Of a stretch of DNA of 32,540 bases, positions 6,001 through 9,000 are shown one piece after another. The DNA lies in assembly GCA_047617745.1 (NCBI GenBank), contig JBLGBN010000009.1:1-32540 (forward strand), written 5' to 3'. The stretch comes from Candidatus Nanohaloarchaea archaeon (GTDB lineage Archaea > Nanohalarchaeota > Nanosalinia > Nanosalinales > Nanosalinaceae). A program made the position numbers. How positions within the stretch are numbered: the stretch's first letter is position 1; the number at the start of each line of letters is the position of its first letter.

Positions 6001-9000
6001 GAATCACCAGCGAAGTGGAATCAATGATCAAATCACTTCCGCCTGGAGTCACTTTCGCGCTTGGGAATGAATACCCGGTTATGACTGATGTGAGAACCAG
6101 AAAATCGAAACATGGTGGAACAACCCAAACTTCTGAAGGCTACAAAGAGAAGGAAAAAATCAGGATGTTCGAACCTCAGAAAACAGTTCAGGAAATCGAG
6201 ACCGAGAAAGGAGAGAAACATGACGTAACGTACTACCCGCTTTACCTGCATGAAACAGGTGAGAAGAAAACTCTTTACGATGCAGTTAGCGGCGAGAAGA
6301 AAGCCGAAGTCAATAAAGTATCAGGAAGAGAGAAAAAGGTACTTGAACACATCGAGGAGGACAGGAACAAAAGCGAGATCATGGAAGAACTAGATATAAC
6401 GCTCTCGAAAGTTACATCCGTAGTTGAATCACTTAGGAACAAGAACCGTGTAAAGGACGAAGGGCTCGAAACTGAGGAAACCATTTTCGGTAAAAATCGT
6501 ATCGAGGAAAGAGTCGAAGAGGAAAAGTTGATCGAGATCGGTAAATCGCCGGAGGAGCTAGGAATTGAAGGTTCTGAACTTTTATACTACCCTTACTACT
6601 CAAGCGGAGAGGACGTTTATGACCCTGTCTTGGAGCAGGATGTATAGAGTTTTCAGAACCAGATAGATCTAATAAGTTTGCTTTTCCAGGTTTAGTATGT
6701 GGACTAGTTTCTTATGAATAGAACATCGGATGGAAGGTTTAAGCAGAGAAGATGCGTGATAACTTCGGGAAATCTTGAAGAAGTAATTGATAATATAAAA
6801 TCAAATAAGTCCTGGACTTGGACTGAATTTGCAGAAGAATTTGGTGTTTCTGCATACACTCTCCGTCAAGATTGGCGAAAAAATGCTGATTCAATACCTT
6901 TCTCGGTAGCATCTAGGTTAAATGAAATGTCTGGCTTACAGTTAGAGTTTGAAAATAAGGCTTTGTGGCATGGGCAGAAGAAGGGAGGCCAAAAATCAAG
7001 TATGCGCGGTAATACGCCTAGTGAATGGGATAAGAGATTTGCAGAGCTTTATGGCGCTTTACTGGGTGATGGTTGTGTTTATTCCAATATGAACGGCTTC
7101 TGTATAACAGGGAATGCTAGCCTTGATGAGGACTATATCCGGTCTCTTGCAGAGCATTGTAGAACTGTTTTTGATATAGATCCTAAAATACATTTTCAGG
7201 AGGAAGAAAACGTAGTAAGGCTTATACTCAATAGCCGAAAAATTGCTAGATTTTTAGAGGATGAAGGCTTTCCCTGTGGCGCCAAAAAGGATAGCGAGTT
7301 CTGCCCTCCCGAAGTTTTAGTAAGTGATAAAGAACTCCTATCTGCTTGTATACGCGGGCTTTTTGACACGGATGGAGGTATATACGCCCATCCAAATTCG
7401 GGTATAATGTTAGATATAACTGCTAAAAATGATGATATTTTCAGATTTCTAGCTGAGTCTTCGGAAACTTTAGATCTACCTCTCAATCCAACTGAAGGAA
7501 AGTTGCAGCTTTATGGTGAGTCAAAAGTTGATGAGTTCTTGAGAAAGGTTGGGAGTAGCAATTCTCGAAATATTAAAAGGTACCTGTACTACAAAGAGAA
7601 TGAAAGTTTGCCGAGCGCAGATTCAACAACCCTTTTAAGATCAAGGAGTCAGGACTTTAATGTGCCTTATTTTGGGTTCGTGGTCTAGTTGGTTATCCAA
7701 TGCTCAGCTCTGCTGGCTTTGGACTAAGACGTCGCCCTTACAAGGCGAAGATCCCCAGTTCGAATCTGGGCGAACCCATGCTAACTCGGCTTTCATGTCG
7801 ATCATAAAAAACCCTGTACTGTTGTCACCGCCAAGTACTTAAAATCTCATGAGTATATTAATAATATGTCTGGTAAAGTGAAACAGGTCATTGTACTCAG
7901 AGAAGACCTGAACATCAGTAAAGGCAAGGAAATATCTCAGGCATGTCACGCCTCGCTTGGAGCATACAAAAAGGCCGATCCAGAGACTATCTCCAAGTGG
8001 GAAGCTCAAGGCGCCAAAAAGGTAGTGCTTTCCTCCGGCGACCGAAAGCTGGAAGATTTATATGCTGAGATTAAAAGTAAAGATATACCGGCCTATCTTG
8101 TAAAAGATGCTGGTAAAACTGAGATTGAGCCTGGCACGATCACCGCTCTCGGGATCGGTCCGGCTAAGGAATCGAAAATCGATAGTATAACGGGAGAACT
8201 CAAGCTTATAGGTTGATACAAAAATGATGGAAGACTTAATGGAATGGGAGTATTACACGGAAACGCCTGGAATAAAGGGCGAGATAAAGGAACAGGTAAA
8301 CGACTTTATAGTGGAAGAACTTGCGTCGCACGAGACAGATGAAGATGGCGACCATCTGATAGTCAAACTGAGAAAGCAGAATATGACCACGATGGAGGCA
8401 ATTTCAAAGCTCTCCAATATGCTCCACATTTCCAAAAACCGGATAGGTTATGCGGGAAACAAGGATAAGAGGGCAGTTACTGAACAGCATATTTCTATTC
8501 AGGGCGTAACTCAGGAAGACGTTAACCAGGTTTTTACAGATGAGTTCGAACTTGAAGTGGTCGGCAGAAACGGCCACATTGGACTTGGAAATCTAGATGC
8601 TAACAGATTTGAAATAACTATAAGACAGCTTAACCTTCCGGTAGATGATCTTAATGACAGAACTTTGAAGATTGTCGATGAAATGGACAGCAAGTTTCCG
8701 AACTACTTTGGAAAGCAGAGATTTGGTTCATCAAGACCAATAACGCATCAGGTAGGTAGACTTATTTTACAGGAGGAATACGAGGAAGCTGTCTGGACCT
8801 ATATCGCTAAACCTTATGACCAGGAGTACAAGAGTATCAGGAAGATAAGGCAGGAACTCTGGGATACGAGAGAGGTAGAAGATGCGGCGGAGAAATTCCC
8901 GGAGCAGTACAGGTACGAGAAAGCACTTCTATACCATCTGACCAAGAACCCTGGAGATTACAAGGGCGCGATCAAAAGATTGCCTGACGGACTTCAGCAG

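Follow-up and report, generated by a model that had tools for sequence, protein, structure and literature searches.

It is a decades-old question why archaeal tRNA genes contain many oddly placed introns and by what means these introns move. Two ideas dominate: the introns shield tRNA genes against integrating elements, or they were gained through integration. The question is raised in a compact form by a locus of Candidatus Nanohaloarchaea archaeon, in which a free-standing LAGLIDADG homing endonuclease gene runs into the 5' end of a tRNA-Val(UAC) gene that is itself interrupted in its D-arm. We here ask how the endonuclease and the intron are related. The window analyzed is the whole stretch of 32,540 nucleotides of contig JBLGBN010000009.1, and the genome it comes from (G000) was compared with a set of 70 genomes, for which the six-frame search for relatives behind the first-pass annotation was rechecked. 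The features of the locus are collected in Table 1.

Table 1. Features of the tRNA-Val(UAC) locus, given as positions in the window.
Feature	Position	Strand	Basis or remark
Spacer after the HerA stop codon, putative original tRNA-Val promoter region	6648..6698	+	TATA-like stretch near 6667-6676
Relic of the tRNA-Val 5' segment (gene positions 7-23)	6699..6715	+	14/17 bases match 7680-7696
Free-standing LAGLIDADG endonuclease gene	6714..7688	+	324 aa; reading frame open
TATA-like box in the last codons of the ORF	7634..7640	+	About 34-40 nt upstream of the tRNA start
tRNA-Val(UAC) gene	7674-7778	+	Alignment to intron-less alleles; contig joints
tRNA-Val(UAC) 5' exon (acceptor 5' strand, D-stem 5' strand, D-loop)	7674..7696	+	Alignment to the 74-nt intron-less allele
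31-nt D-arm intron, bulge-helix-bulge layout	7697..7727	+	Alignment; contigs without exactly these 31 nt
tRNA-Val(UAC) 3' exon (rest of D-stem, UAC anticodon arm, T-arm, acceptor 3' strand, discriminator)	7728..7778	+	

The endonuclease gene

The ORF product was recognized by the Pfam model LAGLIDADG_3 with 26.7 bits (cut-off 22.5). It comprises an N-terminal helix-turn-helix part, two LAGLIDADG motifs with the acidic residue followed by glycine in both (GDG at residues 118-120 and DTDG at 218-221), and a disordered C-terminal tail, whose codons lie in the putative promoter region and the 5' end of the tRNA gene. Residues G118, D119 and G120 as well as D218, T219, D220 and G221 are invariant across 29 homologous sequences. 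The first-pass annotation had described an intact two-motif ORF with D218/D220-G221 invariant, and in this it was right, whereas its motif residue numbers D224 and, for a second endonuclease gene, D175 were wrong.

A repeated structure prediction (pLDDT 87.5, residues 312-324 below 50) gave the same fold as claimed before. The predicted model matched 136 chains of solved structures at E<=0.001, led by intein endonucleases, I-Tsp061I, I-AniI, I-DmoI and I-SceI; the values were E 9e-10 for 7qss, E 1.4e-9 for 2dch (I-Tsp061I, TM 0.72 by target) and about 1e-5 for I-DmoI chains. The model has the pseudo-dimeric alpha-beta fold. As part of the whole explanation given below, we consider the protein to be probably a monomeric, two-motif LAGLIDADG homing endonuclease, "active-looking" and belonging to a family that is found at tRNA genes.

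The tRNA-Val(UAC) gene and its intron

The earlier claim that the endonuclease gene abuts an intron-bearing tRNA-Val(UAC) is confirmed: the two genes overlap by 15 nt, and the D-loop insert was delimited both by alignment and by contig joints from 7696 to 7728 that skip 31 nt. ARAGORN and Rfam each detect only part of this gene. The 5' exon is identical in most genomes.

A bulge-helix-bulge was constructed manually on the splice sites that the alignment defines and then checked by script, with all 4 helix pairs present in 10/10 D-loop alleles. It consists of a 4-bp helix (GGTT of the exon with GACT of the intron), two 3-nt bulges and an inner hairpin, with both cut sites placed symmetrically after the second bulge base. 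Among the ten alleles, the helix and the hairpin show pair changes (covariation), and in the intron of G068, which differs in being 40 nt long, the helix is kept with changed pairs. In the minimum-energy fold the cloverleaf is kept and the insert forms a hairpin. The 31-nt insert thus has the sequence features of a bulge-helix-bulge intron, and would be removed by splicing. One gene with an EndA catalytic domain was found, on contig C19 of the same genome (94 bits, 216-aa frame). A single frame of 216 aa may be of the strict-specificity type, which would count against the explanation given below.

A 265-nt contig from sequencing run X15, with an intron-less tRNA-Val followed by 135 nt identical to the downstream flank and with an unlike upstream side, was considered as an empty allele from the same species. 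It was set aside, since different species share an identical 51-nt 3' exon, across which a k-mer assembler can pass. Positions 5800-7585 are without cover in run X15, to which no evidential weight is given.

A relic of the tRNA 5' segment

Directly before the start codon of the endonuclease gene we found a decayed copy of the tRNA 5' segment, which is the new observation at this locus. The relic ends at the coordinate at which the intron is inserted in the tRNA, and it extends into the ATG start codon by two bases (AT). Just 0.3% of randomly chosen 93-nt windows from the contig reach its score, and against shuffled sequences its z is 3.2, as compared with 4.8-5.5 in G049 and 2.9 in G050. These three relics occupy the same place, each ending at the start codon and the intron coordinate, and they count as one observation because of their descent from one ancestor. 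No clear relic was found upstream of the intact endonuclease gene in G068.

The relic, preceded by a TATA-like box, lies where the tRNA starts in endonuclease-free sisters. In endonuclease-free relatives this start is 37-104 nt past the HerA stop codon, with one case at 196, while the endonuclease-bearing alleles retain a TATA-like box after HerA and then have the relic. The first bases after the HerA stop are common to G050 and its sister G048. Furthermore, an A/T box similar to the one in the last ORF codons, and at the same distance from the tRNA, is present in all four endonuclease-bearing alleles and in the endonuclease-free alleles. The spacer after HerA would be the old tRNA-Val promoter, now placed so as to drive the endonuclease gene, and the inner box would be the promoter of the rebuilt tRNA gene.

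The tRNA segment consequently forms a direct repeat at the borders of a 1-kb insert, whose sense strand contains no ORF of >=60 aa besides the LAGLIDADG gene, and hence no integrase or recombinase. That the relic ends at the intron coordinate suggests that the endonuclease, the replacement 5' exon and the intron are one insertion.

Distribution at the tRNA-Val locus

The gene order HerA-tRNA-PTH2-TruD is kept in 47 loci, in four of which the ORF is present as a ~1-kb insertion. The endonuclease gene is found in 4 out of 10 alleles with the D-loop intron, as opposed to 0 out of 37 other alleles; the reported enrichment at intron-bearing alleles hence applies to this locus, but an intron is not required elsewhere (see below). 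As stated in the earlier census, the only close relatives of the ORF among the 70 genomes are those of G068 (intact), G049 (split) and G050 (4 stops), so that two of the four copies at the locus are decayed. Six alleles, those of G069, G048, G066, G067, G064 and G065, have the D-loop intron without the endonuclease. In the closest relative, G069, the tRNA is identical; homology breaks at the HerA stop codon and returns 2 nt before the tRNA, with 1024 nt in between here and 48 nt in G069.

On a tree of TruD, a single gene adjoining the locus, the D-loop alleles do not form one clade (p-AU 2e-46, for a group named after a first tree was inspected). The D-loop intron is near-identical across three genera, while the canonical introns of congeners are unalignable; this conservation could reflect structural constraint instead of recent transfer. 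The intron of G064 is identical to that of G048, yet G064 and G065 retain both strands of their genus-specific acceptor stem, and the intron there therefore did not come with a foreign 5' exon. Endonucleases of 33-38% identity were also found upstream of tRNA-Val(UAC) genes with a D-loop intron at the same site (loci L106-L112 and L185), in Woesearchaeota, unclassified archaeal genomes and one metagenome contig. A metagenome scan with the single protein gave no relative, and one with the alignment gave distant relatives only and no further close alleles.

Association with tRNA genes in archaea, bacteria and metagenomes

The first-pass annotation had pictured a patchy, often decayed gene family abutting tRNA genes, a description that can be extended well beyond the phylum. 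Among the matches listed, a tRNA gene directly adjoins 34 of the phylum's 37 free-standing LAGLIDADG genes, in a census that is incomplete as it includes 150 of 373 PF14528 matches in the 70 genomes. Of the related loci from DPANN archaea and CPR bacteria, 76 of 80 show the same adjacency, as do 67 of 80 metagenome loci. By chance, a gene end would fall at a tRNA start in this genome in about 0.7% of cases per orientation, or about 1.5% for both. The second gene noted earlier is present as well (C3:35783-36517), together with its convergent tRNA-Gly(GCC) with a canonical intron, and its family has 11 loci in 10 genomes, each <=84 nt from a tRNA.

The ORF stop sits inside the tRNA 5' end, typically at -9 to -25, and this fixed geometry points to site-specific insertion. 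At least nine different tRNA species have adjoining endonuclease genes, and the endonuclease clades track tRNA identity, with 10 label changes against a shuffled mean of 24.7 (0/200 shuffles as low). The layout with a single gene recurs in most of 160 loci from many phyla, in a comparison of the ORF-tRNA arrangement.

In bacteria, a co-directional tRNA directly adjoins the endonuclease gene at each of the 26 loci, and in 24 of these ARAGORN calls no intron; such a call is also lacking for 16 of 31 archaeal ARAGORN-typed tRNAs adjoining endonucleases. Four intact endonuclease genes in the phylum (L087, L089, L094 and L097) lie by an intron-less tRNA-Asp or tRNA-iMet. With intron-less and bacterial tRNAs as neighbors, immunity must in these cases rest on another basis. 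Twenty of the loci were typed by ARAGORN with introns allowed and by reading by eye; ARAGORN anticodons were often wrong for tRNAs with non-canonical introns, for which identities were re-read by eye, and Rfam missed many intron-bearing tRNAs in 17 other loci.

Relics also appear in other lineages. The first 25 nt of the tRNA are repeated near the ORF start (z>=3) in 17 of 66 loci, as against 0 of 66 mid-ORF controls, with L127, counted among the 17, being an entire tRNA gene; a further set gave 8/53 versus 0. The similarity to the tRNA ends at gene position 20-25 in 9 out of 13 relics. Among the matches listed, no relics were found in the 30 loci of the other families of the phylum (Gln, Leu, iMet, Asp and Gly), with two scoring exceptions, i.e. 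L091 (z 6.8, possibly a separate tRNA-Gly gene) and L085 (z 3.2). No consistent signal emerged when the sequence beyond convergent (3'-side) endonuclease genes was searched for a relic of the tRNA 3' segment. D-arm introns in the source genome are confined to the four tRNA species that have 5'-side endonuclease genes elsewhere in the phylum; no endonuclease remnants were found beside the other three of these tRNAs.

A probable single insertion and its alternatives

We favor, as the probable explanation, that the endonuclease, the putative inner promoter, the replacement 5' exon and the intron (roughly 6716-7727, about 1 kb) are a single insertion into the D-loop. Along with the endonuclease ORF, the insertion would have brought the inner TATA-like box, a new copy of the tRNA 5' part and the 31-nt bulge-helix-bulge intron. 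The old 5' segment would have been displaced upstream, surviving in decayed form before the start codon, and the old tRNA promoter would have come to drive the endonuclease gene. With the fresh 5' copy and the intron joined to the resident 3' part, a working tRNA could still be obtained after splicing. The enzyme would cleave the D-arm of tRNA-Val genes that have no intron, and the entire unit would be copied during repair from the occupied allele. In the occupied allele no 5' copy directly precedes the 3' segment, so that the target would be absent and the allele immune. Later on, the endonuclease gene would decay, as in G049 and G050, or be deleted, with the intron persisting, as in the six alleles named above. 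Deletion may have occurred by recombination between the 5' segments or in a way that kept the inner promoter, two routes between which the promoter comparison is too weak to choose.

The first-pass annotation had proposed collaborative homing of two separate elements, in which the gene landed by a tRNA with a pre-existing, unrelated intron; the enzyme would cut alleles free of that intron at its insertion site, and both would travel together only by co-conversion. The endonuclease gene does adjoin an intron-bearing gene, the intron is without an ORF, and the restriction of the endonuclease to intron-bearing alleles, the six alleles with an intron only and the native acceptor stems in G064 and G065, as if the intron moves alone, all fit this proposal, which is established for the phage systems F-CphI/psbA and mobE/I-TevIII (PMC6083498, PMC2790892). 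However, it leaves unexplained both a relic adjoining the start codon and broken off at the intron coordinate, and the recurrence of the relic-ORF-tRNA layout in bacteria, without such introns. We regard it as unlikely; two collaborating elements are probably not the best picture here, as the relic suggests one insertion. A considerably less likely idea is that tRNA genes are tolerated landing sites for an enzyme with another target or none, the link with introns reflecting shared descent in a few genera. The related genomes are indeed not independent, most intron-bearing tRNAs of the source genome have no endonuclease neighbor, and several endonuclease genes lie by intron-less tRNAs. Yet adjacency, also when the phylum count is taken among the matches listed, far exceeds the expected level, and the landing-site idea is further opposed by the number of tRNA species involved, the ties between endonuclease clades and tRNA identity, the fixed position of the stop inside the tRNA 5' end and the confinement of the D-arm introns in the source genome.

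Two more origins seem highly improbable, to about the same degree. The protein could be a domesticated one kept for host benefit, e.g. a WhiA-like regulator or a helper in tRNA expression or splicing, for which WhiA chains among the fold matches (8dy9_I, E 7e-7) and the helix-turn-helix part would speak; but the gene occurs in only 4 of 47 syntenic loci, two of these decayed, it is absent from G069 despite the identical tRNA, and both motif aspartates are retained, while a WhiA-like protein is marked by loss of the catalytic acids and by vertical inheritance. The locus could also be what is left of an integrase-type element that rebuilt its tRNA in the manner of pNOB8-type plasmids, the LAGLIDADG gene being cargo that survived. 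Such an origin is in line with the recombinase-bearing insert of Caldiarchaeum, which has a tRNA 5' repeat and an extra junction intron (PMC3293823), but it is at odds with an insert of only about 1 kb with a LAGLIDADG ORF as its sole content and with the recurrence of this single-gene layout, in a comparison that left integrases in the flanks outside.

Implications

The proposed single insertion offers a DNA-level route by which an endonuclease would make the break, bring the intron and leave it as an immune scar, and thereby suggests how odd tRNA introns may arise and spread. The enzyme, its proposed target (a tRNA-Val gene that has the same exons but no intron) and the allele predicted to be protected are each specified by sequence. 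A homing endonuclease could thus colonize an essential gene outside an intron or intein by carrying a replacement gene segment, and the arrangement seems to be frequent among the DPANN and CPR lineages with their small genomes. Annotation of tRNAs in these lineages is affected, since ARAGORN and Rfam mis-call such genes.

A wider claim, to which we give somewhat less than an even chance, is that a widespread LAGLIDADG family invades tRNA D-loops with a spare 5' half by which the tRNA stays functional, and that in archaea the junction is sealed by a short bulge-helix-bulge intron, which persists after the endonuclease is lost. The non-canonical tRNA introns of DPANN and other archaea would then have homing endonucleases as a major source, and split tRNA genes and orphan tRNA fragments would perhaps share this origin.

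Comparison with known systems

No description of the relic-endonuclease-tRNA arrangement was found in searches of the open-access literature. The archaeal rRNA-intron endonucleases I-Tsp061I and I-DmoI share with the present case the predicted fold, a two-motif monomer, a bulge-helix-bulge intron and a stable RNA gene as host. Their ORFs, however, lie inside the intron of an rRNA gene, whereas here the ORF is outside the short intron, upstream of the rebuilt 5' exon of a tRNA gene, and encodes an extra N-terminal helix-turn-helix part. In fungal mitochondria, free-standing endonuclease ORFs insert at the end of a gene and carry a replacement end, the displaced original being left as a relic. 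There too a spare gene segment lets an essential gene survive, although these are the 3' ends of organellar protein-coding genes.

In F-CphI/psbA and mobE/I-TevIII, the endonuclease gene is likewise outside the intron and next to the intron-bearing gene (PMC6083498, PMC2790892), and as in these systems the target would be interrupted by the intron, which would move along with the endonuclease gene. They differ from our locus in having group I introns, phage protein genes and non-LAGLIDADG enzymes, and are not known to involve a duplicated gene segment. In CPR bacteria, LAGLIDADG endonucleases occur in insertions in rRNA genes, and such genes are also located between rRNA and tRNA genes in CPR and DPANN hosts (PMC8172020, PMC11270868). 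Superfamily and kinds of host are thus the same; the available sections of these reports cover rRNA introns and spacers, and do not describe ORFs ending inside tRNA genes or relics of tRNA 5' segments.

Lastly, the closest precedent is the integrase-driven gain of an intron in the tRNA-Thr gene of Caldiarchaeum subterraneum, where a 5' tRNA fragment is found upstream of an element and a rebuilt tRNA with an intron at position 24/25 (Sugahara et al. 2012, PMC3293823). The insert of 1.8 kb encodes a putative recombinase and is attributed to site-specific integration, and the authors propose that the intron arrived with the element and blocks re-invasion. Both loci share the order of 5' fragment, insert and rebuilt tRNA with an extra intron in the region of the D-arm. 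While the insert in Caldiarchaeum involves a recombinase and one locus, the present one has a LAGLIDADG gene alone, which implies homing by break and repair, and its arrangement recurs across many phyla.

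The endonuclease gene and its tRNA-Val neighbor

The genome carrying contig C9 (G000; 834 kb, 34 contigs) has the gene order HerA - LAGLIDADG ORF - tRNA-Val(UAC) - PTH2 - TruD at this locus. The ORF product scored 26.7 bits against Pfam LAGLIDADG_3, above the cut-off of 22.5, and residues G118, D119 and G120 as well as D218, T219, D220 and G221 were invariant in an alignment of 29 homologues. The AlphaFold model built on this alignment had a pLDDT of 87.5, with values below 50 only in a linker (92-94) and the final 13 residues. Structural matches comprised 136 chains at E<=0.001, including intein endonucleases, I-AniI, I-DmoI, I-SceI and likewise WhiA, and the archaeal intron-encoded I-Tsp061I was matched at E 1.4e-9 with a TM score of 0.72 by target. 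Pfam, the invariant motifs, the model and the tRNA alignment all bear out the first-pass annotation of a two-motif LAGLIDADG ORF at an intron-bearing tRNA-Val gene. Judged by sequence, the ORF very probably encodes a selfish endonuclease specific to tRNA genes. Only one other clear LAGLIDADG gene occurs in the genome, on contig C3. On C1, a 378-aa ORF with two LAGLIDADG-like motifs and no tRNA gene nearby is weakly similar (E 0.001) to one endonuclease located beside tRNA-Gln, and could count as the genome's third LAGLIDADG protein, whether divergent or domesticated.

Alignment with the intron-less allele found in relatives (74 nt) resolves tRNA-Val(UAC) into two exons and a 31-nt insert, and contigs from three runs omit precisely this insert. 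At the splice sites exon GGTT pairs with intron GACT in a 4-bp helix, flanked by two 3-nt bulges with the cut after the second base in each and an inner hairpin beyond. The layout could be drawn in all ten alleles with a D-loop insert, including that of genome G068, where a different, 40-nt insert forms it with altered base pairs; the hairpin shows covariation. Since, in addition, the free fold of the intron-bearing tRNA retained the cloverleaf and one EndA gene is present in the genome, we interpret the insert as an intron of the bulge-helix-bulge type, predicted from this pairing layout.

Features at the tRNA-Val locus and related features elsewhere (genome:contig:positions)
Feature	Location	Strand	Basis or remark
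HerA-type helicase gene	G000:C9:4788-6647		619 aa; upstream neighbor of the LAGLIDADG ORF
tRNA-Val 5' relic	G000:C9:6699-6715		directly 5' of the ORF start codon
LAGLIDADG ORF	G000:C9:6714-7688	+	open frame, 324 aa
tRNA-Val(UAC) exon 1	G000:C9:7674-7696	+	alignment to relatives' 74-nt intron-less allele
tRNA-Val(UAC) insert, 31 nt	G000:C9:7697-7727	+	alignment to relatives' 74-nt intron-less allele
tRNA-Val(UAC) exon 2	G000:C9:7728-7778	+	alignment to relatives' 74-nt intron-less allele
Second LAGLIDADG gene	G000:C3:35783-36517
ORF with LAGLIDADG-like motifs	G000:C1:107918-108628	-
CCCTGGC-loop tRNA	G000:C6:7966-8101
tRNA-Leu(UAG)	G000:C31:1144-1285 (locus)	-	intact
LAGLIDADG_3 match within HerA	G021:C14:17439-17687
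LAGLIDADG_3 match within HerA	G026:C10:4629-4877
LAGLIDADG_3 match within HerA	G022:C18:6393-6638
LAGLIDADG_3 match within HerA	G048:C28:10811-11056
LAGLIDADG_3 match within HerA	G049:C3:29990-30232
LAGLIDADG_3 match within HerA	G050:C13:20574-20819
LAGLIDADG_3 match within HerA	G027:C14:2135-2377
LAGLIDADG_3 match within HerA	G043:C54:54904-55155

Occupied and empty alleles

A tRNA-Val query matched 62 of the 70 genomes of the phylum. Out of 50 fetched loci, 47 were typed, all with HerA-tRNA-PTH2(-TruD) synteny, which was missing in G042, G034 and G001. No endonuclease gene was found in the 20 genomes with an intron-less allele (one cut by a contig end) or the 17 with the canonical 37/38 intron alone, while three of the nine with a D-loop intron alone had one, as did the single genome with both introns (G049). 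The gene is intact in G000 and G068, frameshifted in G049 and interrupted by four stops in G050; with four occupied loci out of 47, the patchy and decayed distribution reported in the first-pass annotation was confirmed.

In the endonuclease-free genomes the tRNA starts 37-104 nt past the HerA stop, or in one case 196 nt (L080 in G037, a tRNA-Val(UAC) with a 199-nt canonical intron). Between G000 and its closest relative, G069, homology breaks at the HerA stop and returns 2 nt before the tRNA, the intervening gap being 1024 nt in G000 and 48 nt in G069. The tRNA and intron are identical at 105/105 positions between these two genomes, and the flanking genes share just 79-84% DNA identity. A contig from run X15, considered as a same-species empty allele, was set aside, as the assembly may have joined two different sequences through the 3' exon that they have in common. 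In G062, 1.5 kb separate tRNA-Val from the end of the fetched locus (L063), and no PTH2 match was found there. HerA frames of many relatives measure about 1140-1260 aa, each with a LAGLIDADG_3 match 1-2.5 kb from tRNA-Val. Because the long frame contains this match, HerA of these relatives probably carries an intein; HerA on C9 has no such match.

The stretch just before the ORF agrees with tRNA-Val positions 7-23 at 14/17 bases, a score equalled by just 0.3% of random contig windows (z 3.2 against shuffles). This relic ends at the intron insertion coordinate, its final two bases being the AT of the ORF's ATG, and it lies behind a TATA-like box, where the tRNA starts in endonuclease-free sisters. 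The first bases past the HerA stop are common to G050 and G048. A second TATA-like box is situated within the last ORF codons, spaced as usual ahead of the rebuilt tRNA, and the model shows the protein tail encoded around it as disordered. The same relic occupies the same place in G049 (z 4.8-5.5) and G050 (z 2.9), which as related copies form one observation with that of G000; G068 had no scorable relic before its endonuclease gene. None were found in the phylum's other endonuclease families, leaving the relic clear in only one lineage of the phylum. About 60 nt upstream of tRNA-Leu(UAG) on C31 lies a 15-nt copy of its 5' end with no ORF between, possibly what remained when an insertion of the composite kind proposed below for tRNA-Val was excised.

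tRNA adjacency within the phylum

Three queries gave, among the matches listed, 37 free-standing LAGLIDADG loci (frames <520 aa). A tRNA gene lay within 84 nt at 34 of these (31 by ARAGORN, two by tRNA-Val alignment and one tRNA-iMet by eye). Loci with the match in frames of at least 900 aa (inteins) had no tRNA call. A protein tree of 35 of the 37 listed loci, two short fragments being omitted, clusters by adjoining tRNA: Val-UAC, initiator Met, Gln with Leu-CAA, and Asp with Gly-GCC. It requires 10 label changes (minimum 9) against a shuffled mean of 24.7, and 0/200 shuffles were as low, kinship contributing to this result.

Among the matches listed, a D-arm intron accompanied 13/15 endonuclease genes on the 5' side of a tRNA and 1/19 on the 3' side. 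G000 has D-arm introns only in tRNA-Val(UAC), tRNA-Gln(UUG), the CCCTGGC-loop tRNA and tRNA-Leu(CAA), precisely those tRNA species that, among those matches, have an endonuclease gene on their 5' side in other genomes of the phylum; no endonuclease remnants were detectable beside the latter three. The CCCTGGC anticodon-loop tRNA, with a long D-arm intron on C6 and in loci L008, L011 and L015, has by position the anticodon CUG (Gln), with C instead of the usual U at position 33, and is called Arg, Ala, Pro or Met by ARAGORN, varying by locus.

The family beyond the phylum

Homologues were found in Woesearchaeota, Nanoarchaeota and Paceibacterota, among others, and many have a C-terminus ..G(F/P)VV that is the translation of the tRNA 5' end GGG(TTC/CCC)GTGGTCTAG. 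On genome contigs, a co-directional tRNA started -100 to +60 of the ORF stop in 68/80 loci (57 by ARAGORN, 11 by eye), a convergent tRNA adjoined in 8/80, and in 4/80 a tRNA lay within 200 nt. The 80 metagenome loci comprised 63 co-directional and 4 convergent cases, 6 with another nearby call, 6 with none and 1 with no room; by chance, about 0.7% would be expected for each orientation. All 26 bacterial loci had a co-directional tRNA, almost always tRNA-Ser, with no intron call in 24, while 15 of the 31 archaeal neighbors typed by ARAGORN had one. L106-L112 and L185, at 33-38% identity the nearest relatives outside the phylum and for the most part labelled Woesearchaeota, likewise precede a tRNA-Val(UAC) whose D-loop intron occupies the site used in G000, and the further relatives L186 and L187 adjoin intron-less tRNA-Val. 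Members also occur in bins outside DPANN/CPR (L123 and L155, Planctomycetota; L177, Bdellovibrio; L156 and L160, Methanosarcinales), some of which may be contaminated, since the adjoining tRNA and relic of L123 look archaeal.

The first 25 nt of the adjoining tRNA recurred near the ORF start at z>=3 in 17/66 loci (at L127 as part of an entire tRNA gene upstream) against 0/66 mid-ORF control windows; at z>=4 the numbers were 13 and 0, and in the metagenome set 8/53 and 0. These fragments lie behind a TATA-like box and end in the D-loop, followed by an A/T-rich stretch and the ORF. With a 60-nt query, similarity stopped at gene position 20-25 in 9/13 relics and extended to position 28-41 via A/T-rich sequence in the other four. 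The break falls at the D-loop with or without an intron there in the rebuilt tRNA. ARAGORN treats some of L166 (Woesearchaeota, 1174-2166), L259, L216 and L110/L185 as one tRNA whose intron, 700-1400 nt long, contains the ORF, because the upstream 5' fragment and the downstream 3' part fit one cloverleaf; such calls may be an annotation trap or hint at an ancestral intron-encoded state.

A proposed composite insertion and its alternatives

The simplest account, which we consider fairly probable from the sequence pattern, is a single composite insertion in the tRNA-Val D-loop. The order would be old promoter, old 5' segment (the relic), endonuclease ORF with inner promoter, new 5' exon, intron and resident 3' exon. 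Neither 5' copy would then run directly into the 3' segment, and for this reason an enzyme recognizing the uninterrupted D-arm would spare its own allele. Once the ORF had decayed or been deleted, an immune, intron-bearing allele would remain, as in the six intron-only genomes. The first-pass interpretation is supported in part and sharpened to this composite reading: its link with intron alleles is seen at tRNA-Val (4/10 D-loop alleles against 0/37 others), but intact endonuclease genes also adjoin intron-less tRNAs, which counts against the composite insertion as well, as do the confinement of clear relics to a single lineage of the phylum and the doubtful status of the X15 contig as an empty allele.

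The ten D-loop alleles are spread over three genera. In a tree of TruD from 42 loci they do not form one clade, and forcing them into one costs 125 log-likelihood units (p-AU 2e-46), TruD being a single gene adjoining the locus and the tested group having been named after a first tree was seen. The D-loop intron is near-identical across the three genera (32/32 bases between G048 and G064), and structural constraint could explain part of this conservation; the canonical introns of the congeners G047 and G049 are unalignable. In G064 and G065 both strands of the acceptor stem are still those typical of the respective genus, so no foreign 5' exon came in with the intron there. For these two genomes an intron moving alone, with cleavage in trans, fits better than the composite unit.

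Comparison with known systems

In fungal mitochondria, endonuclease ORFs carrying a replacement gene end provide a parallel to the tRNA-Val composite unit. For DPANN and CPR, the open-access literature yielded no account of LAGLIDADG genes adjoining tRNA genes or of tRNA 5' relics next to such LAGLIDADG genes; in the passages retrieved from PMC8172020 and PMC7143001, the LAGLIDADG topics are rRNA introns and spacers. Collaborative homing is documented in phages, according to excerpts of PMC6083498 and PMC2790892. The closest precedent found in open-access text is the tRNA-Thr insertion of Sugahara et al. 2012 (PMC3293823). There, a 5' tRNA-Thr fragment precedes by 1.8 kb a tRNA-Thr that has an additional intron at 24/25; the inserted DNA contains a recombinase gene, and the authors propose that the element brought this intron in and that the intron keeps it from invading again; an excerpt of PMC4390854 repeats this account together with the Randau-Söll protection idea. 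The arrangement described here, in which an endonuclease would rebuild the tRNA gene that hosts it and an intron would seal the junction in archaea, appears to be a new variation on these known systems.
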